DNA of 64,000 bases from a virus (IMGVR_UViG_3300028797_000108:64001-128000); one strand, 5' to 3'; counted from the stretch's first letter, positions 26,546 through 33,294 are shown. Translations and numbers: made by a program. Notes: a model not told the origin generated them from the letters alone.

Positions 26546-26677
26546 CGGGCGATAGTTCAAGCGGTCGGGAATACTTTCCGAGTAAAACAGAACGATCTCA
26601 GACCTTCGTGCTAGGTCGCGAGAAAACACGAAGTTAGGACGATAGACTTCCCTGGGTTCAAGTCCTGGGGCGCTCGC
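26546..26677 (+). ncRNA. Expanded tRNA-like RNA without a canonical anticodon loop
   Basis: Acceptor, D-stem GTTC/GAAC and T-arm GGTTCAAGTCC present; inserted hairpins. Confidence 0.6.
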
Positions 26678-26687
26678 TAGCTTTTAT

Positions 26688-26761
26688 ACCCTAGTAGCTC
26701 AACTGGATAGAGCAACGCTCTTCTAAAGCGTGGGTTGCAGGTTCGAGTCCTGCCTAGGGTA
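26688..26761 (+). tRNA. trnR: tRNA-Arg(TCT)
   Basis: ACGCT-CT-TCT-AA-AGCGT. Confidence 0.9.
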
Positions 26762-26768
26762 CTTCTTT

Positions 26769-26840
26769 GAGGGTAAAGCTTTGACGGTGAAGCAATAGAC
26801 TTTTAATCTATGGAACCGGCTTCGAGCTCCGGTACCCTCA
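26769..26840 (+). tRNA. trnK: tRNA-Lys(TTT)
   Basis: ATAGA-CT-TTT-AA-TCTAT; atypical T arm. Confidence 0.8.
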
Positions 26841-26850
26841 CTAAATTTCT

Positions 26851-26921
26851 TGCCGGTTCGTATAGCGGTAGTATAGGGGACTTTGAATCCTTTGGCGTTG
26901 GTCCGACTCCAGCACCGGCAG
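26851..26921 (+). tRNA. trnQ: tRNA-Gln(TTG)
   Basis: GGGGA-CT-TTG-AA-TCCTT. Confidence 0.85.
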
Positions 26922-26985
26922 CTATAGATCACGAGGTGTGCAAATCCCTCAAGCAGAGTGAACTGCGATAACAAGTTAAACTCAA

Positions 26986-27058
26986 CGGCAGATAGCACAA
27001 TGGTTAGTGCAGCGGACTCATAACCCGCCGGTTGAAGGTTCAAATCCTTCTTTGCCGA
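26986..27058 (+). tRNA. tRNA(CAT), Met or Ile2
   Basis: GCGGA-CT-CAT-AA-CCCGC. Confidence 0.85.
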
Positions 27059-27119
27059 TAGTTAATAAACTGTTGATAAAACTGTGCATTAACTGTATAA
27101 TTCAAATTTTGAACTATTC

Positions 27120-27145
27120 ATGGCGCCCTAAAAAGCGCCATTTTT
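27120..27145 (+). terminator. Rho-independent terminator
   Basis: ATGGCGC-loop-GCGCCAT-TTTT. Confidence 0.7.
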
Positions 27146-27286
27146 CTATCTCAAAACGATGAAATTTAAGCAGTTATATTACAGTAATTTACAGTAAACC
27201 GCGTAGATTGTGTTGATTTAAGCACTGTTGATATATTGTCAATTTGATCATAAATCACTGTAAATAAAAAATTTACATTTCTACCA

Positions 27287-27315
27287 TTGACGGACTTCCA
27301 GATAGTTGTTATATT
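27287..27315 (+). promoter_or_regulatory. Early sigma70-type promoter
   Basis: TTGACG-17-TATATT-TTACTCGTAAA. Confidence 0.8.
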
Positions 27316-27351
27316 TTACTCGTAAATTGAAAACAACAAGGAAACTGGAAT

Positions 27352-27543
27352 ATGAACAAACAAGAACTGATCCGCGCGCTGATTGAAACCGCCGAAAAGG
27401 AAGGCTCAAACATTCATTTTGACCATCAATTTGGGTGGGACGGTTTTGTTGATTCCAACGGCGAATTCTGGGCTACCGACGGTCACTCCGTCTCCGAAAT
27501 TTGTCGCAGAATTTTCAGTGCCTGTCAGGAAGAATTCATCTAA
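27352..27543 (+). CDS. Hypothetical protein
   Basis: First gene after promoter. Confidence 0.7.
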   Translation: MNKQELIRALIETAEKEGSNIHFDHQFGWDGFVDSNGEFWATDGHSVSEICRRIFSACQEEFI

Positions 27544-27555
27544 GGAGAACCGACA

Positions 27556-28128
27556 ATGATTTTGAAAATCAACTACGCTCGTGCCCTTTACGTTGAATCT
27601 GACACGATCTATCCGGAAGGTCCCAACAGCGACCACACCTATCAAACGGTGCGCTGCGACGGCCGCATCCGCAAGACCTGTTGGTTCCGCCTCGGTGAAG
27701 CATTCTTGAAGTTCCCCGAACATCGCGCGGTCACCCGCAAGGAAATCGCCGCAGTGATGGAACATACCTTCAGCCCTGACGGCACAAAGGATTGGGGCAC
27801 GGGTATCTGGAGTCCGGATATGTGGACGACCTTCGTTCATGATGGCTTCATCAAGAAGTTTCAGAACGGAAATCGCTTCACCTATATGCTCTCCGATTGG
27901 GGTCGCAGGACTACCATCGCAGCGCAGCGCGACTTCAGCAAGGAATTCACGAAGGCAACGCTTCGCATTCAGGCTATGCCCAAATCGGTTGAAGAAGCCA
28001 AGCAGCTCGTCAAGATCAAGTTTGACAAGCACGAGAATTACCTCGCCCGCAAGGCCGCAGGTTTTCCGAAAAAGAAGGCTCGCCTCGCAAAGGCTGCCCT
28101 CCGCGCTGAAGCAAAAATTTTGAAATAA
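27556..28128 (+). CDS. Hypothetical basic protein (possible winged-helix)
   Basis: RBS AAGGAG; TRKEIA...GFIKK..Y.LSDWG. Confidence 0.7.
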   Translation: MILKINYARALYVESDTIYPEGPNSDHTYQTVRCDGRIRKTCWFRLGEAFLKFPEHRAVTRKEIAAVMEHTFSPDGTKDWGTGIWSPDMWTTFVHDGFIKKFQNGNRFTYMLSDWGRRTTIAAQRDFSKEFTKATLRIQAMPKSVEEAKQLVKIKFDKHENYLARKAAGFPKKKARLAKAALRAEAKILK

Positions 28129-28153
28129 AATGAAAAAAATTCAAAATTTACCC

Positions 28154-28182
28154 TTGACAGTTCAAAATTAAATTGTTATATT
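28154..28182 (+). promoter_or_regulatory. Early sigma70-type promoter driving a non-coding stretch
   Basis: TTGACA-17-TATATT. Confidence 0.75.
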
Positions 28183-28496
28183 TTAACTGTTGAAATTGAA
28201 CAACTACTGCCTCTGGTTCAACGCCGCGGGCCACGCAGGACAACAAAAACCCACGCGGTTCACCTACTGCCCATCCTAGGAAGGGCGACAACTTGGAGAT
28301 TGAAATGAAACTTTTGACGTGTATGTAGAACGGTTTGAGCTTTCATCGTATCAGCTCATCAATGATTGGGGCGATGAAGGCGAGCGGATTTTGATCCCAC
28401 CGTTGCGGTAGGCCTAGATGAGCGTTGCTCGAGTTGCAGAAGATCCTCGGAAAAATCTTCACGGGCGTCACCCGGAAAAAATTGACAAAAATACCC

Positions 28497-28525
28497 TTGA
28501 CAGTTTCAGAAAACTATTTTATATT
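28497..28525 (+). promoter_or_regulatory. Early promoter of the main tRNA array
   Basis: TTGACA-17-TATATT; late TATAAATA also at 28612-28619. Confidence 0.75.
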
Positions 28526-28637
28526 TGATACTGTCAAAACAAAATCAATCCCGAGCGGATTTGATTGCAGCTTGAAATAGCGGAAACACAAGATTTTGAA
28601 AAGTTGTTGTTTATAAATATGAATAACAACTGAACAT

Positions 28638-28710
28638 GCCTCGGTGGCGCAATTGGTAGCGCAGCGGACTCTTAATCCGTGGGTTGAAGGTTCGAGTCCT
28701 TCCCGGGGCA
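28638..28710 (+). tRNA. trnK: tRNA-Lys(CTT)
   Basis: GCGGA-CT-CTT-AA-TCCGT. Confidence 0.9.
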
Positions 28711-28910
28711 CTACTGGACAAGATCGCGTCAAACTGAAGAGGATTGTTAGTAGTAGCGAAGTACAAGCTATGAACAGGGTTGCTAGTAGGTTTGATGGCA
28801 ACGCGTGCAGACCCCACCGATGAGGAGGGGTGAACTGCAGAGGAACCCGACCTGGGGGCGCATCGGGGTGAGTCTTGACAATTTGATGAAAGCGAATCAT
28901 CGCAAGTCGT

Positions 28911-28986
28911 TGGATGTAGTTATAAATGGAAAAACAGGGTCCGCTTCGGCGAGCTCATAATTGTGGGTCCGACTCCCACCGTCCGT
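28911..28986 (+). ncRNA. tRNA-like RNA with a UUCG tetraloop in place of the anticodon loop
   Basis: TGGATG/CGTCCG acceptor, T-arm GTGGG-TCCGACT-CCCAC, CGC-TTCG-GCG. Confidence 0.55.
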
Positions 28987-29117
28987 AAAACGATTCTGTG
29001 AGTAGTCAAAGGGCTAATCTAAAGCTTGCCTCCAATGCGAAAAAAGCTGAGCGTGCCACCGGCGAGCGATGGTGGGGTTACAGCATAACCACAAAGCTGC
29101 ACAATGCAAGATCGCCT

Positions 29118-29198
29118 TCGGCAGATAGTTCAAGCGTAGAACATCGGGTTGTCCCCGAAGATTACTGGGTAAAAGCCAAGGCTACCAGAAGTCACCGA
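29118..29198 (+). ncRNA. tRNA-like RNA with 5-nt anticodon loop and altered T arm
   Basis: GTTC-AAGCGTA-GAAC D arm; TCGGG-TTGTC-CCCGA. Confidence 0.45.
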
Positions 29199-29326
29199 TT
29201 GTTGCATATCCTGCTTGGGTCGCGGTTGGTCCCGTGAGACTCGCTCAGGCTTGGTTGAAGGTTCAACAAGTAAAAGAGGACTTAGGCTTGCTTGGCGCCT
29301 TAAGCCTAACCAGCACAAGCATTATT

Positions 29327-29400
29327 GGGGTCATAGCTCAATTTGGTAGAGCACTAGCTTTGCAAGCTAGGGGTTCCGGGTTCGAGTCCCGGTGGCTCCA
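29327..29400 (+). tRNA. trnA: tRNA-Ala(TGC)
   Basis: CTAGC-TT-TGC-AA-GCTAG, G3:U70. Confidence 0.92.
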
Positions 29401-29411
29401 CGAAACATTTC

Positions 29412-29773
29412 GGGCTCCCTCCGCCATTTGCAAGTAAGACAAAGAAGGCACGACAAACCGAAAGTAGTTACATTGGTTGCTCTTTGTGGCTGCGATCTTG
29501 GTCCTTCCTAATGAAAGTACCATACAAAGGAGTAGGTAGATCCGTGAAGGAATCGCTCTAAGCTGGAGTAGATCGGATCGGGAATCGCTGAAACGACCGA
29601 AGATGCCTATAACAGAAAGGTTGATGGTGTGCAGCTAGCACTGTCGCTGAAGTAAATGTGCGGCATTGGAAGGATGGAAACGGTGAGGCGGTATACTGAT
29701 GGGACAGGGATAAGCTCCTGACTTTTAGGTATATGTGGTAGCCACTGTGGAGGTTCAAATCCTTCGGTGCCCA
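29412..29773 (+). ncRNA. About 360-nt structured RNA ending in a T-arm/acceptor-like module
   Basis: GGGCTCC ... GGAGG-TTCAAAT-CCTTC-GGTGCCC-A-CTA. Confidence 0.5.
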
Positions 29774-29784
29774 CTAATTATTAT

Positions 29785-29858
29785 TGGATTGTAGCTCAGT
29801 TTGGTAGAGCGGTCGGCTGTTAACCGATTGGTCGCAGGTTCGAGTCCTGCCTTTCCAG
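29785..29858 (+). tRNA. trnN: tRNA-Asn(GTT)
   Basis: GTCGG-CT-GTT-AA-CCGAT; two acceptor mismatches. Confidence 0.85.
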
Positions 29859-29885
29859 CTAAACGCCGATTAGGCAACATTTTCT

Positions 29886-29961
29886 GTGCTATAGCCGTCC
29901 GCAGGAATCGGACGCCGGCAGTCGCCGGAAATCAGTGGTTCAATTCCACTCGTAGCCACCA
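29886..29961 (+). ncRNA. tRNA-like RNA with 4-nt anticodon loop and encoded CCA
   Basis: CCGGC-AGTC-GCCGG; AGTGG-TTCAATT-CCACT; ends GTAGCCACCA. Confidence 0.55.
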
Positions 29962-30075
29962 AAGGAAATGGCTTGGTTAAGATAACCTCAACATCAAGTA
30001 GCCGAAAGGTGTGGGACACTTGACGATCAGACAACTCGAGTAATGCTGAACGCTTGAGTCCCAGCGCTTTTGATT

Positions 30076-30148
30076 GCCTGTATAGCTCAGCTGGTAGAGC
30101 AGCGGCTTTGTAACCCGCAGGTCGGGGGTTCGGATCCCTCTGCAGGCG
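30076..30148 (+). tRNA. trnT: tRNA-Thr(TGT)
   Basis: GCGGC-TT-TGT-AA-CCCGC. Confidence 0.88.
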
Positions 30149-30286
30149 CTAATGGTTGAATGTTGGGTATCCTATAGGAATAAACAATAGCCTATAGGTG
30201 GACCGAGCCCCGTTCTGTAATGGGATGGGTGCCCGCATTTCACAATGCCGGTAGTCCGGTGGTGGCGGAACCACCTTAAAAACTTG

Positions 30287-30361
30287 CGGGCTGTAGCTCA
30301 GTCTGGCTAGAGCACTTGATTTGGGATCAAGGGGTCGTGGGTTCAAATCCCGCCAGCCCGA
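30287..30361 (+). tRNA. trnP: tRNA-Pro(TGG)
   Basis: CTTGA-TT-TGG-GA-TCAAG. Confidence 0.92.
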
Positions 30362-30370
30362 TAACATTAT

Positions 30371-30443
30371 TGCGGAGTGGAGCAGTGGTTAGCTCGGCAG
30401 CCTCATAAGCTGAAGGTCGTGGGTTCAAGTCCCACCTCCGCTA
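30371..30443 (+). tRNA. trnM: tRNA-Met(CAT), initiator-like
   Basis: 1:72 mismatch, GGAGCAG..TAGCTCG D arm. Confidence 0.85.
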
Positions 30444-30455
30444 CTAAAAGTATTT

Positions 30456-30541
30456 GCCAGTGCGCCGACGTTGGAGAGTCGGACCGGACTGTAAATCCGG
30501 GGCCCTCACGGGCTTTGGTGGTTCAAATCCACCCTCTGGCA
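30456..30541 (+). tRNA. trnY: tRNA-Tyr(GTA)
   Basis: CCGGA-CT-GTA-AA-TCCGG, long variable arm. Confidence 0.88.
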
Positions 30542-30555
30542 CGAAAAGAATTTTT

Positions 30556-30627
30556 GGCTCCTTGGTCTAGAGGTTAGGACACCACATTTTCAATGTGAGA
30601 ACCCGGGTTCGAGTCCCGGAGGAGCTA
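30556..30627 (+). tRNA. trnE: tRNA-Glu(TTC)
   Basis: CACA-TT-TTC-AA-TGTG. Confidence 0.88.
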
Positions 30628-30635
30628 CTAAGCCT

Positions 30636-30708
30636 CGGATGGCATCGTTTGATTATGGCAAGACGCCCACGCGAAGTGGGAAAGAGCGGTCCGAATCCGC
30701 TTGCCTGA
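30636..30708 (+). ncRNA. tRNA-like RNA with 5-nt anticodon loop
   Basis: D arm GTTT/AGAC; CCCAC-GCGAA-GTGGG; AGCGG-TCCGAAT-CCGCT. Confidence 0.6.
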
Positions 30709-30786
30709 ACAGTGAGTACACGGTCTGGGGCTAGGAGCAAAAAGCTGAGAGACGTCGTAGGTGTATTGCTCCGGTACTTTTGAATT

Positions 30787-30857
30787 GGGTTCATAGTTTA
30801 ATGGATGAATACCGGCTTGTCACGCCGGCGGTACGGGATCGTGACCCGTTGGACCCG
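30787..30857 (+). tRNA. trnD: tRNA-Asp(GTC)
   Basis: CCGGC-TT-GTC-AC-GCCGG; atypical T loop. Confidence 0.82.
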
Positions 30858-30864
30858 CTAAAAA

Positions 30865-31082
30865 TTGCTGTTTGACAAATCAGGTGAACTGCAGATAGCC
30901 TGAGGCGTTGATTGCGGTTTGAGGTCCGGCGACGGCTGGATGCAAAGGAATAGCCGGAAGCGCGGTTCTAGAGGAAGTTCCTCAGGAGCCGGTGAAGGGA
31001 GGCCCCAAAAGGGCATTAAAACAACGGCGGGAAGGCACCCTCTAAAGAGCTCTGAATATGCAGCCCTCAGAGCAAACAGCAA
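30865..31082 (+). ncRNA. About 218-nt structured RNA with a 10-bp terminal stem
   Basis: TTGCTGTTTG pairs with CAAACAGCAA; fills the gap between two tRNAs. Confidence 0.55.
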
Positions 31083-31086
31083 CTAT

Positions 31087-31160
31087 CGGCATGCATAACG
31101 ATTGGTTCGTTTGCCACTCTGATAAGGTGGAGATTGAAGGTTCAACTCCTTCCGTGCCGA
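31087..31160 (+). tRNA. trnI: tRNA-Ile(GAT)
   Basis: CCACT-CT-GAT-AA-GGTGG; atypical D arm. Confidence 0.8.
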
Positions 31161-31163
31161 CTA

Positions 31164-31223
31164 AAGATACTTACAGCAAAGTTATCAACATTCTTTTTTT
31201 GGTAGAATCGCAAAGGTATCTTG
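31164..31223 (+). ncRNA. Stem-ACAGCAA element copy 1 (no tRNA cargo)
   Basis: AAGATACTT-ACAGCAAA...AGGTATCTTG. Confidence 0.65.
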
Positions 31224-31228
31224 ATTAT

Positions 31229-31301
31229 GCCGCGGTAGCCTAGGTGGTCATGGCGCGGGACTGAAAATCCTGAGATGTTGGTCCGATTCCAACCCTCGGC
31301 A
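31229..31301 (+). tRNA. trnF: tRNA-Phe(GAA)
   Basis: CGGGA-CT-GAA-AA-TCCTG. Confidence 0.88.
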
Positions 31302-31314
31302 CTAAAACAATTAT

Positions 31315-31386
31315 AGCGGGGAGAGGATGGTTCCTCCGCCGGTCTCATAAGCCGTGCTTCTGCAGGTTCGAGTCCTGCCGCCGCTA
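31315..31386 (+). tRNA. trnM: tRNA-Met(CAT)
   Basis: CGGT-CT-CAT-AA-GCCG; short D loop. Confidence 0.78.
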
Positions 31387-31390
31387 CTAT

Positions 31391-31474
31391 GGCCTACTGG
31401 CGGAACTGGTAGACGCGCCTGACTTAGGATCAGGTGCCCGTGAGGGCGTGGGAGTTCGAGTCTCTCGTAGGTCA
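31391..31474 (+). tRNA. trnL: tRNA-Leu(TAG)
   Basis: CCTGA-CT-TAG-GA-TCAGG. Confidence 0.9.
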
Positions 31475-31494
31475 CTAAAACACAAGGAGTTATT

Positions 31495-31701
31495 ATGACT
31501 GAACAAGAAGCAAAAAGAGCAAAAGAAATTGAAGCAATGCTGAATTGGAATTTGCAGCGATCCCAGGCCTTGGGTGAATTCCCTTTGCCCGTCACTTGTG
31601 GTATCACTCAGATCTTTAACTGCGTTCAGTCTGAAAGGGCGGCTGCTTGGAAGCGCAAGAATGATATTGCGAACGGGCGAGTCCCTGATTCGGTTCCGTA
31701 G
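31495..31701 (+). CDS. Small protein inside the tRNA array, 3' end overlapping tRNA-Arg
   Basis: RBS AAGGAG; 68 aa. Confidence 0.6.
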   Translation: MTEQEAKRAKEIEAMLNWNLQRSQALGEFPLPVTCGITQIFNCVQSERAAAWKRKNDIANGRVPDSVP

Positions 31702-31767
31702 CTCAGTCGGATTTAGAGCGCCACGCTACGAACGTGGAGGTCCCAGGTTCGAGTCCTGGCGGAACTA
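31692..31767 (+). tRNA. trnR: tRNA-Arg(ACG)
   Basis: CCACG-CT-ACG-AA-CGTGG. Confidence 0.9.
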
Positions 31768-31824
31768 CTAAAGCGGTTTGGGTGGAGGTACGTCGCCGTT
31801 ATAAATATCTCAAATCGCTTTTAT

Positions 31825-31908
31825 GCTTACATGAATCCGAGCGGCAAAGGACGCAGTCTGCAAAACTGCGGGCGAAAGCCTTCGCAGGTTCGAGTCCTGC
31901 TGTAAGCT
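31825..31908 (+). tRNA. trnC: tRNA-Cys(GCA) with long variable arm
   Basis: GCAGT-CT-GCA-AA-ACTGC, U73, GGC-GAAA-GCC arm. Confidence 0.8.
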
Positions 31909-31914
31909 CTAATA

Positions 31915-32040
31915 AAGATAGAGACAGCAAAATTAAATGCTATCCCAAGGCTGAAACGAGGGGTCCGAATCCCCTCATGGAGGTTGGTCTTCCATTCGTC
32001 TAGTGGTCTAGGACTCAGCCAAAGCAAAAAATCTATCTTG
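31915..32040 (+). ncRNA. Stem-ACAGCAA element copy 2 with circularly permuted tRNA domain (YrlA-like)
   Basis: GGCTGA, T arm, ATGGAGG-TTGGT-CTTCCAT, D arm, TCAGCC. Confidence 0.75.
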
Positions 32041-32044
32041 TCTT

Positions 32045-32128
32045 GGAGGGTTAGCCTAACGGTAAGGCAGCGGTCTTGAAAACCGCCGCGGGGAAACTCG
32101 CTTGTAGGTTCAAATCCTGCACCCTCCG
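32045..32128 (+). tRNA. trnS: tRNA-Ser(TGA)
   Basis: GCGGT-CT-TGA-AA-ACCGC. Confidence 0.9.
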
Positions 32129-32142
32129 CTAAAACATTTTAA

Positions 32143-32214
32143 GTCCCATTGGTGTAGTGGTAGCACGTCTCCTTGCCATGGAGAAGGTCGCCGGTCCGAA
32201 TCCGGCATGGGGCT
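32143..32214 (+). tRNA. trnG: tRNA-Gly(GCC)
   Basis: TCTCC-TT-GCC-AT-GGAGA. Confidence 0.88.
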
Positions 32215-32218
32215 CTAT

Positions 32219-32345
32219 AGATACGCACAGCAATGTTAAAGCATGGTCTGATAAACCCCGTGTTGCAGGTTCGAGTCCTGTCGGGTCGCTGAAAGGTGAC
32301 CTGTAGCTCAATCGGTAGAGCAGGAAAAGCAAAAAACGTATCTTG
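32219..32345 (+). ncRNA. Stem-ACAGCAA element copy 3 with circularly permuted tRNA domain
   Basis: GGT-CTGATAA-ACC, T arm, CGGGTCGCT-GAAA-GGTGACCTG, D arm. Confidence 0.75.
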
Positions 32346-32350
32346 TATAA

Positions 32351-32421
32351 GTCCTATTGGTGTAGTGGTAACATTTCTGCCTTCCAAGCAGGTGTGGCGA
32401 GTTCGAGTCTCGCATAGGGCT
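32351..32421 (+). tRNA. trnG: tRNA-Gly(TCC)
   Basis: CTGC-CT-TCC-AA-GCAG. Confidence 0.88.
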
Positions 32422-32424
32422 CTA

Positions 32425-32547
32425 AAGGTGCTCTCAGCTAAATTTTCATAGGAAAATTCTAGAGTAGTATAATTGGTTATTACACCCTCCGATAAAAGAG
32501 GGAGATCCTGGTTCGAGTCCAGGCGCCAGACCCCGAAAGGCATCTTG
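32425..32547 (+). ncRNA. Stem-(A/T)CAGC element copy 4 with degenerate non-permuted tRNA domain
   Basis: AAGGTGCT...GGCATCTTG; 8-nt anticodon loop, broken acceptor. Confidence 0.6.
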
Positions 32548-32555
32548 ATCTTACC

Positions 32556-32627
32556 CCCGTGGTAGTGTAATGGTTAGCACACGAGCTTGTGGCGCTCGTA
32601 GTTCGGATTCGAGTTCCGGCCTTGGGA
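32556..32627 (+). tRNA. trnH: tRNA-His(GTG) without encoded G-1, A73
   Basis: CGAGC-TT-GTG-GC-GCTCG. Confidence 0.8.
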
Positions 32628-32630
32628 TAT

Positions 32631-32704
32631 ACCTCCGTGGCGCAGTGGTTTAGCGCGGCTGCCCTACAAGCAGCGGGTCGTAGGTTCAACTCCTACCGGG
32701 GGTA
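32631..32704 (+). tRNA. trnV: tRNA-Val(TAC)
   Basis: GCTGC-CC-TAC-AA-GCAGC (C33). Confidence 0.85.
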
Positions 32705-32708
32705 CTAT

Positions 32709-32780
32709 TGGGGCGTGGTGTAATTGGTAACACGCATGACTCTGACTCATGAATTCTTGGTTCAAGTCCAGGCGCCCCAA
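32709..32780 (+). tRNA. trnQ: tRNA-Gln(CTG)
   Basis: CATGA-CT-CTG-AC-TCATG. Confidence 0.9.
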
Positions 32781-32860
32781 CTATGGTGACCCAAAGCCAA
32801 AACAAATTGGGTCGTTTCTAGTGAGTAGCCTTGTAGCTAGATCTGTAATTAAAGGCCCTT

Positions 32861-32933
32861 AGGGATATAGTTCAATTGGTAGAACGGCGGACTCCAAACC
32901 CGCGTGTTAGAGGTTCAAATCCTTTTGTCCCTG
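32861..32933 (+). tRNA. trnW: tRNA-Trp(CCA)
   Basis: GCGGA-CT-CCA-AA-CCCGC. Confidence 0.88.
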
Positions 32934-32937
32934 TTAT

Positions 32938-33021
32938 GGCCGAGTGGCGGAATTGGTAGACGCGGCGGACTCAAAATCCGCTGACCGCGAGGTCGTGAGA
33001 GTTCAAGTCTCTCCTTGGCCA
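32938..33021 (+). tRNA. trnL: tRNA-Leu(CAA)
   Basis: GCGGA-CT-CAA-AA-TCCGC. Confidence 0.92.
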
Positions 33022-33025
33022 CTAT

Positions 33026-33143
33026 AGATACCAACAGCAAAAATGCGTCTTGCTCCTCCTGGGGTTATAGCTCAATTGGTAGAGCACCGCCGACATACTG
33101 GCGGGGGTTGCGGGTTCGAGTCCCGATATGCAATGGTATCTTG
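33026..33143 (+). ncRNA. Stem-ACAGCAA element copy 5 with degenerate tRNA domain
   Basis: AGATACCA-ACAGCAAA...TGGTATCTTG; D and T arms intact, 8-nt anticodon loop, no acceptor 3' strand. Confidence 0.7.
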
Positions 33144-33148
33144 ACTTT

Positions 33149-33234
33149 GGAGGAATACACTAATTGGTTAAGTGGCCACCCTGCTAAGGTGGTGTCCCGA
33201 AAGGGGCGTGAAGGTTCAAGTCCTTCTTCCTCCG
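33149..33234 (+). tRNA. trnS: tRNA-Ser(GCT)
   Basis: CCACC-CT-GCT-AA-GGTGG. Confidence 0.9.
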
Positions 33235-33263
33235 TATTGACATTTTTTGACAATTTCTTGTTA

Positions 33264-33294
33264 GCGCCCGAATTGATGAAATTCGGGCGTTTTT
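33264..33294 (+). terminator. Terminator of the tRNA array
   Basis: GCGCCCGAATT-GATGA-AATTCGGGCGT-TTTT. Confidence 0.8.

Follow-up and report, generated by a model that had tools for sequence, protein, structure and literature searches.

Since the 1970s the tRNA-like stable RNAs that phages T4 and T5 encode among their tRNA genes have stood unexplained, and this roughly 50-year-old question is raised again by a 64,000-nt stretch of viral DNA (the window) that comprises bases 64001–128000 of a 139-kb IMG/VR virus record (IMGVR_UViG_3300028797_000108; CheckV completeness ~37%). The sequence comes from a large rumen phage with 29 genuine tRNA genes, among which lie five tRNA-shaped elements, here called el1 to el5, that do not have a canonical anticodon loop. 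What kind of RNA are they? The reading we lean towards, with modest confidence, is that they are tRNA-derived, non-decoding RNAs built on a tRNA frame and excised from polycistronic tRNA operons as stable RNAs. A preliminary description had treated them as one uniform set of five; that uniformity did not survive, since el1 and el4 represent families without relation to each other, el2 and el5 are orphans, and el3 resembles debris. The feature is real though heterogeneous, and it overturns nothing: the kind itself is already known, and what is new here is the two conserved families.

ARAGORN places the 29 tRNA genes between 26453 and 33235, every one on the + strand, and Rfam confirms the majority. 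All five elements lie where they had been described, within this array and on the tRNA strand, and a consensus scan assigns them no promoter or terminator of their own. Two assemblies from separate samples (L036 and L037) are 100% identical to the window across the array, so the array sequence is not an assembly artefact. Single-sequence folds reproduced the hairpin at the anticodon position of each element, with the noncanonical loops of the preliminary description (7 nt, UUCG, 5, 4 and 5 nt, respectively; sequences in Table 1). The anticodon loop of a canonical tRNA is 7 nt long and has U33 and a purine at position 37; none of the five shows this combination.

The other half of the tRNA outline is better preserved. 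El1, el2, el4 and el5 carry a strict T-arm motif, defined as a fully paired stem (5/5) closed by a T[TC]C[GA]ANN loop; el3 does not. The motif occurs eight times in the ~4.7 kb of non-tRNA array sequence vs. five times in the ~114 kb of strand outside the array; T-arm density in the array spacers is thus enriched ~40-fold, far above chance. An acceptor stem stacked on the consensus T arm is found in the same four elements and not in el3. The claim that acceptor, D and T arms are all kept needs amending for three elements: el1 is an expanded molecule of 133 nt with a hairpin inserted in its D loop, el5 pairs a perfect T arm with an acceptor of just four contiguous pairs, and el3 has no T arm.

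Standard tRNA annotation calls none of the five. ARAGORN scoring at lowered thresholds, which the preliminary description had proposed as a check, recovers el4 at 90% (0 false matches outside the array), el2 at 85% (7 outside) and el5 at 80% (34 outside), and never calls el1 or el3; such lowered-threshold searches mislabel elements as tRNA-Ser or tRNA-Arg. At 80% the array yields 11 extra matches vs. ~1.4 predicted by the rate outside it, and every one of them is on the + strand. No element passes the 29-bit gathering threshold of the Rfam tRNA model (RF00005): el3 scores highest of the five, at 16.1 bits (E = 7), and el1, el2, el4 and el5 give no match at E <= 10. The YrlA model (RF02553) has no match over any of the five; transfer-messenger RNA (tmRNA) models give just 7–14-bit fragments over the T arms of el2 and el4, and ARAGORN reports no tmRNA. 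Fold energies of el1, el2, el3 and el5 taken alone are no better than those of shuffled sequences (z -0.3 to -0.9); el4 is the only one of the five that stands out (z = -2.84).

Conservation was sought among related arrays. Searches of IMG/VR with single small proteins of the array and with profiles found no relatives, and BLAST of the whole array against GenBank phages gave matches solely through ordinary tRNAs. Two open reading frames (ORFs) embedded in the array, of 190 and 68 aa, have homologues in a large protein collection, and the contigs that encode these homologues, together with a few more retrieved by DNA patterns, make up the related arrays compared here (>12). Among them tRNA order is mostly kept, and the content of the spacers is cassette-like.

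One conserved family is that of el4, which starts 26 nt 3' of tRNA-Asn. An element of this family stands 3' of tRNA-Asn in nine lineages, which is every related lineage with that part of the array recovered. The alignment is small (nine sequences, eight of them distinct, all mutually related) and its cloverleaf was specified by the analyst; within it 83.5% of cells pair, compared to 74% in column shuffles (reached by 0/500), and seven pairs have changed on both sides vs. 2.6–2.7 in shuffles (reached by 0–2/500). Controls in which the structure was slid along the alignment are 28–49% paired. Loops at the anticodon position drift in both sequence and length (4, 5, 7 or 8 nt): the window has AGUC, L012 has GAGAG, two lineages have UCUAAUCU, one has CUAUCCG, and the other four of the nine sequences share CUUUCCG. 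The T loop, canonical in the window, is UGCGAAU, AGCGUAG or AGCAAAG in relatives. The alignment indicates that the el4 family is selected for a four-helix shape, and neither for decoding nor, in relatives, for a canonical elbow. The elbow mimicry proposed for the elements is not conserved in this family: besides their aberrant T loops, the relatives have D loops devoid of GG.

The origin of el4 can be read from its relatives. Its D arm is nearly the same as in the tRNA-Glu of these phages, and the Glu anticodon UUC lies inside CUUUCCG, which together mark the family as a tRNA-Glu paralogue; a genuine tRNA-Glu is also present in every el4-bearing array that extends far enough. R1, a covariance model of the family, scores the array's genuine tRNA-Glu copies at 36–41 bits. 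No member reaches the Rfam tRNA threshold (the L053 homologue gives no match) and default ARAGORN calls none. To say that the anticodon loop was specifically destroyed is correct insofar as all loops are noncanonical and too strong for el4, given the 7-nt Glu-like loop that five related lineages have at this locus. Intact tRNAs at these loci in relatives had been named as the observation that would count against the preliminary description; the Glu-like loop goes part of the way towards it, and the stems nonetheless covary. The A-CCA at the 3' end of window el4 is not conserved in relatives and is therefore probably a coincidence. The array gene nearest to window el4 is a tRNA of L019 (4646–4721) with a Glu-type D arm and an 8-nt anticodon loop, UUGCAUAU; it matches at 54 of 62 aligned positions and scores 45 bits on R1. 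Two DNA patterns built on el4 were also searched in IMG/VR: one found nothing, and the other gave ten matches that we attribute to chance, none in a tRNA array.

The second family is that of el1, which lies 10 nt 3' of tRNA-Leu and 8 nt 5' of tRNA-Arg. The family (134–151 nt) is present in two phage lineages. Between the window and the L012 clade (L012–L017) el1 is 94.7% identical; for scale, the array protein is 71% identical in that clade and orthologous tRNAs are 62–100% identical. Each difference from L012 lies in a loop or is neutral to pairing, with three wobble-preserving changes in the acceptor stem and one double change in the T stem. A 17-mer from the centre of el1 retrieved three IMG/VR contigs (L059, L060 and L061) that form a separate lineage with a different array order, in which the homologue sits between tRNA-Tyr and tRNA-Met. 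Bar two substitutions, a core of ~56 nt is unchanged between the window and this lineage; around it the D-loop insert has been swapped for a different, longer hairpin, and the acceptor and T stems are altered with pairing kept. A contig sharing the 17-mer alone (L062) was rejected as a homologue, and nine matches of the 17-mer in unrelated GC-rich bacterial genomes were taken as chance. BLAST of el1 against GenBank phages gave no match, and R2, a covariance model of the family, matches just the known el1 copies among all loci compared.

The two core substitutions are informative about the fold. Within the core the four sequences differ at columns 66 (A to C) and 115 (U to G) and nowhere else, and in the RNAalifold consensus, with 29 pairs of which 0 are broken and three changed on both sides, columns 66 and 115 pair with each other. 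They do so within a long central arm, in which AUCUC pairs with GA(C)GAU and then CUUCGUG with CACGAAG. Because the covarying pair belongs to this arm, the native fold is probably not the hairpin with the 7-nt loop: the paired anticodon stem claimed for el1 is returned by single-sequence folding, and covariation favors the long arm in its place. With one covariation event as its basis, we take the centre of el1 to be probably a single long arm. An N-CUA trailer follows the discriminator in every copy, and el1 looks like an array member matured in the manner of a tRNA. An antisense target for its apical loop was sought in the window, where the element itself was the sole match.

Stem covariation among related phages was another check that the preliminary description had put forward, and pairing-preserving changes were found in both families. 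They bear directly on the most serious alternative, to which we give a distinctly lower though appreciable probability: that the elements are neutral or near-neutral tRNA pseudogenes and recombination debris in a hypervariable array, rearranged for instance by homing endonucleases. A pseudogene should accumulate substitutions that ignore base pairing, and those of the el1 and el4 families do not; pairing is kept through double and wobble changes, far above the shuffled and slid controls, and el1 is conserved as strongly as genuine tRNAs. For el4 the Glu-like 7-nt loop of its relatives speaks the other way, as the window copy could be a further decayed one. The earlier contention that simple decay is not at work thus stands for these two families, whose helices are kept by compensatory and wobble changes, and probably fails for el3.

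The remaining three elements are confined to this strain, which speaks for the same alternative. The best cloverleaf among them is el2, which lies in the middle of a 615-nt gene-free spacer (~198 nt upstream, ~130 nt downstream); the UCCGA variant of its T loop also occurs in three genuine tRNAs of the array. El5 follows tRNA-Glu by ~7–10 nt and scores 17.1 bits on R1. Its acceptor offers just four contiguous pairs, and a fold of the whole spacer favors instead a 10-bp outer stem (30631–30640 with 30723–30732); in the relatives L012 and L041, Thr is directly followed by Asp, with no el5. BLAST of el2 and el5 against GenBank phages gave no match. Likeness to the array's own tRNAs is marginal for el2 (score of 19 vs. 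a shuffled-control maximum of 14.5) and at background for el5 (15 vs. 16). Despite this divergence both retain perfect 5-bp T stems and closed stems at the anticodon position, and intact helices in sequences so far diverged argue, by implication only, against long neutral decay; the c(UUCG)g of el2 on its 8-bp stem would moreover require a 3-nt gain and several substitutions. Both are probably younger examples, peculiar to this strain.

El3 stands apart. Over its first 20 nt it agrees with the leader, acceptor strand and D stem of el1 at 18 of 20 positions (repeat search), the element amounts to a 5' tRNA half followed by an irregular hairpin, without a T arm, and 90 nt downstream lies a 14-nt fragment identical to part of tRNA-Met that does not have the 3' strand of its T stem. 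The el1-like 5' end and a tRNA-Met piece without its partner strand make el3 read as a recombination patchwork, and it is probably recombination debris. Also in keeping with turnover of this kind are the widely varying spacer lengths at the same junctions (62–615 nt for Lys(ctt)>Ala, 9–287 nt for Glu>Asp) and the homing-endonuclease-like and TnpB-like genes found inside relatives' arrays.

Table 1. Coordinates of the five elements, their anticodon-position loops and other features of the array, counted from the first base of the window. Loops are from single-sequence folds.
Feature	Coordinates	Strand	Description
el1	26547–26679	+	133-nt tRNA-framed RNA; acceptor stem, D stem GUUC/GAAC with inserted hairpin, long central arm, T arm 26652–26670, discriminator G, CUA trailer
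el1 loop	26606–26612	+	UCGUGCU, 7 nt; no U33, no purine 37
First terminator	27120–27141	+	Intrinsic; end of first sub-array (Leu, el1, Arg, Lys, Gln, Met)
Promoter	28497–28525	+	Sigma-70-type (TTGACA, 17 nt, TATATT), 11/12 consensus matches; would drive el2–el5 operon
el2	28910–28987	+	78-nt cloverleaf; acceptor 6/7 pairs, 3-bp D stem, GG in D loop, 8-bp arm with c(UUCG)g, T arm GUGGG-UCCGACU-CCCAC 28963–28979
el2 anticodon-position arm	28937–28956	+	c(UUCG)g, 4 nt, on 8-bp stem with one C.A mismatch
el3	29120–29215	+	5' tRNA half (acceptor strand, D arm, 5-bp stem with 5-nt loop), then irregular hairpin; no T arm; bulged acceptor-like stem
el3 loop	29149–29153	+	UUGUC, 5 nt
Orphan fragment	29253–29266	+	14 nt, variable loop and T arm; identical to tRNA-Met 27030–27043; no 3' T-stem strand; in el3 patchwork
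el4	29886–29961	+	Cloverleaf; 5-bp acceptor (7 with bulge), 6-bp D-like hairpin, CCGGC-AGUC-GCCGG 29915–29928, T arm 29934–29950, 3' end ..GUAGCC-A-CCA
el4 loop	29920–29923	+	AGUC, 4 nt
el5	30636–30708	+	D arm CGUUU/AGACG with loop GG, CCCAC-GCGAA-GUGGG 30666–30680, T arm AGCGG-UCCGAAU-CCGCU 30685–30701, weak acceptor
el5 loop	30671–30675	+	GCGAA, 5 nt
Y-RNA-like elements (three)	31910–32044, 32216–32350, 33023–33147		Terminal stem AGAUA../..UAUCU, CAGCAA after 5' strand, UCUUG end, around tRNA parts
Second terminator	33263–33291	+	Intrinsic; end of long tRNA operon

How might such RNAs be made? An acceptor stem stacked on a T arm is the minimal substrate of RNase P, RNase Z and the CCA-adding enzyme. 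The elements would be co-transcribed within the phage's polycistronic tRNA operons, and since this half of the tRNA is retained, they are probably released as small stable RNAs by these three enzymes of the host's tRNA maturation. Processing, stability and a scaffold role are what we infer here: the tRNA frame would serve as a scaffold for both processing and stability, and whatever replaces the anticodon arm would be the working part, or merely a closed strut. In el1 the conserved frame with its N-CUA trailer may display the invariant central arm, the likely working part; el4 would be a tRNA-Glu paralogue retained for its four-helix fold. The sequence C-U-A directly follows the discriminator in 18 of the 29 genuine tRNAs, replacing an encoded CCA, and this trailer is common to el1, the large RNA ending at 29774, the CAU tRNA-like element at 31315–31387 and tRNAs of the unrelated rumen phage lineage of L059 (3330–3910), which suggests a shared route of RNase Z cleavage and CCA addition.

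The operon layout is compatible with such co-transcription. Consensus scanning finds strong sigma-70-type promoters at 27287, 28154 and 28497; from the positions of these and of the terminators (Table 1), el1 would belong to a short first operon and el2–el5 to a long one spanning ~28530–33291.

An invariant core of ~56 nt on a variable tRNA frame points to the core as the working part of el1 and provides a concrete, testable handle. A more ambitious version, which we regard as speculative and hold at low probability, would make el1-type elements a new class of phage effector RNA. In such RNAs the tRNA frame would ensure that RNase P and RNase Z process the molecule and that CCA is added, perhaps along with charging independent of the anticodon, the invariant central arm of ~50 nt would engage a specific host or phage factor (e.g., a defence nuclease, the ribosome or a synthetase), and el2, el4 and el5 would be simpler members of the class.

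A role as decoy or sponge, in which the elements would occupy host factors that recognize a tRNA by its body rather than its anticodon and would in this way protect or tune the tRNA pools of phage and host, is in our judgement improbable. Candidate factors would be tRNA-cleaving defence nucleases, RNase P and RNase Z, the CCA-adding enzyme, modification enzymes and anticodon-independent synthetases. Phage tRNA arrays do counter tRNA-targeting defences (PMC10264068, PMC11464382, PMC11555353), and el1, el2, el4 and el5 of the window keep the acceptor, the T arm and a GG-bearing D loop with the anticodon loop closed; the defence nucleases in those studies, however, target anticodon loops, which are absent from these RNAs. 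The elbow that such a decoy would offer is unconserved in the el4 family, and the invariant part of el1 is its central arm rather than the tRNA body. A confirmed decoy or effector function would extend the current picture of phage tRNA genes as counter-defence by a new layer; should the elements be mere processed by-products, annotation would still be affected, as standard tools miss them.

A role as processing punctuation, by which the elements would recruit RNase P and RNase Z to free neighboring spacer RNAs with defined ends, had also been put forward. We consider it equally doubtful for the set as a whole. Genuine tRNAs flank el1 closely on both sides, and el4 and el5 each follow a tRNA at short distance, so that the flanking RNAs already have tRNA-defined ends and punctuation is unneeded for these three. 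For el2, in the middle of its long gene-free spacer, such a role is possible, and the spacer 3' of el4 is conserved along with el4.

Several observations weigh against the proposal that the five are excised as stable RNAs on a tRNA frame. El2, el3 and el5 have no homologue in relatives or by translated search; their only other copies, in L036 and L037, are 100% identical, their trailers are not N-CUA, and their fold energies do not rise above shuffles. Minimum-free-energy folds of el2, el4 and el5 lengthen the closing stems into the flanks, which, if real, would hinder both RNase P and RNase Z. Relatives of el4 have neither the D-loop GG nor a canonical T loop, and they would be processed more weakly if these enzymes need a canonical elbow. 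The invariance of the el1 core could come from recent exchange between arrays and not from purifying selection. Finally, and with little weight given that the 139-kb record is ~37% complete, no TROVE/Ro60 protein, CCA-adding enzyme or RtcB was found in it. A search of the same incomplete record for Rnl1 also returned nothing, although that search had no positive control.

The closest known systems nonetheless offer a precedent for such RNAs. Like the tRNA-like stable RNAs of other phages, the five elements lie in a tRNA cluster, on the tRNA strand and without signals of their own, and tRNA-like ends are kept (el3 without a T arm) with anticodon function gone. T5 rna1–3 (GenBank AY543070) likewise lie within the tRNA cluster on the tRNA strand and retain acceptor stem and T arm, the anticodon loop being absent. 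Two of them, rna1 (144 nt) and rna2 (125 nt), are annotated as 'tRNA-like stable RNA with unknown functions' and are expanded as el1 is; rna3 (73 nt, 'putative tRNA-like RNA') resembles el4 in standing directly 3' of tRNA-Asn and ending in ACCA. Unlike our five elements, which are known here from sequence, the T5 RNAs are annotated as stable RNAs; phage family and host differ, and neither R1 nor R2 matches them.

In T4 the closest counterpart is rnaC (species 1 RNA, 139 nt), which is like el1 in that its ends pair, its T arm is canonical (CCGGG-UUCGAAU-CCCGG) and long arms replace the D and anticodon arms. Together with the adjoining rnaD (species 2 RNA), which does not have a T arm, it lies at the end of the T4 tRNA cluster, co-oriented with the tRNAs; the roles of both RNAC and RNAD are stated to be unknown in a review (PMC3014915). 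Neither R1 nor R2 has a match on the T4 locus. As there is no homology at the level of these models, the likeness to the T4 and T5 RNAs is one of kind by analogy and not of descent. T4 has two such RNAs in contrast to the four or five here, which are accompanied by Y-RNA-like and larger tRNA-framed RNAs. The array of this large uncultured phage is thus richer than those of T4 and T5, as no fewer than two independent conserved families, those of el1 and el4, stand beside strain-specific copies, Y-RNA-like mimics and the larger tRNA-framed RNAs.

Two other comparisons are more distant. YrlA (RF02553; PMC4201824) shares non-decoding tRNA mimicry and occurrence in phages, but the five elements are unpermuted, have no terminal Ro-binding handle and, as reported above, do not match its model. 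With genuine tRNAs, and tRNA-Glu(UUC) in particular, the elements share the cloverleaf, the D arm of el4 and the CUUUCCG loop of its relatives; they differ in scoring below 29 bits on RF00005 and in having loops of 4, 5 or 8 nt, or of 7 nt without U33 and purine 37.

The array contains further RNAs of interest. Three Y-RNA-like elements (Table 1) are 84–92% conserved in relatives, and the one at 32216–32350 scores 42.8 bits on the Rfam YrlA model (gathering score 69). A ~360-nt spacer RNA at 29412–29774 has a canonical T arm (GGAGG-UUCAAAU-CCUUC) and an A-CUA trailer, and its 3' part (29686–29774) is called by ARAGORN at 90%. An unannotated tRNA-like element with a CAU anticodon (31315–31387) is called by ARAGORN at 95%, scores ~25 bits on the Rfam tRNA and tRNA-Sec models and likewise ends in an A-CUA trailer; its D arm is odd, and it could represent a third Met or Ile2-type tRNA. 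At 32458–32533 ARAGORN reports a tRNA with a 4-base anticodon (ataa) in an 8-nt loop; the same slot holds a tRNA called Val(aac) in L012 (13586–13662) and one called '???(ga)' in the L044–L057 relatives.

Two spacers without a tRNA-like outline also stand out. The 63-nt spacer between tRNA-Gln and tRNA-Met (26923–26985) is 95–98% identical across all related clades, above most of the flanking tRNAs; in the distant L019, CAAGCAGAGTRAACTGCGATAA is kept and the stem of the upstream hairpin is altered with pairing kept (GAGG/CCUC vs. GGAAG/CUUCC). This spacer probably encodes a small conserved RNA or acts as a signal for processing. A ~300-nt gene-free stretch (28190–28495) lies between the near-identical strong promoters at 28154 and 28497 and may be a promoter-driven small RNA; TCTGG-TTCAACG-CCGCG within it (~28212) recurs in L009. 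Rfam searches of the spacers gave no match to GOLLD, ROOL, tmRNA or skipping-rope-type families, Pfam and PHROGs gave none for small ORFs within or near the array, and tblastx against relatives' arrays revealed no protein-coding remnants in the el2/el3, el4 and el5 spacers. The motif GUGAACUGC, common to three spacers, was rejected, as its frequency is not above chance.

Spacer turnover among relatives can be followed junction by junction. The 615-nt Lys(ctt)>Ala spacer of the window measures 405, 238, 190 or 62 nt in relatives, and the Glu>Asp spacer is 158 nt in the window; both are 86–91% conserved inside a clade and unalignable across clades. Genes of mobile elements lie within relatives' tRNA arrays (L053 2070–2732, L044 6268–6906, L019 613–1548), their ORFs being NUMOD3/DUF559 endonuclease-like, Phage_endo_I-like and IS605 OrfB/TnpB-like, which is consistent with cassette-like turnover. 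Window positions 30150–30286, in the spacer 3' of tRNA-Thr, are 82–84% identical to the sequence preceding tRNA-Thr in the clade of L044, L052, L054, L056 and L057 (L044 4707–4787); as the match sits on the other side of the tRNA, conserved spacer modules shift position relative to the tRNAs.

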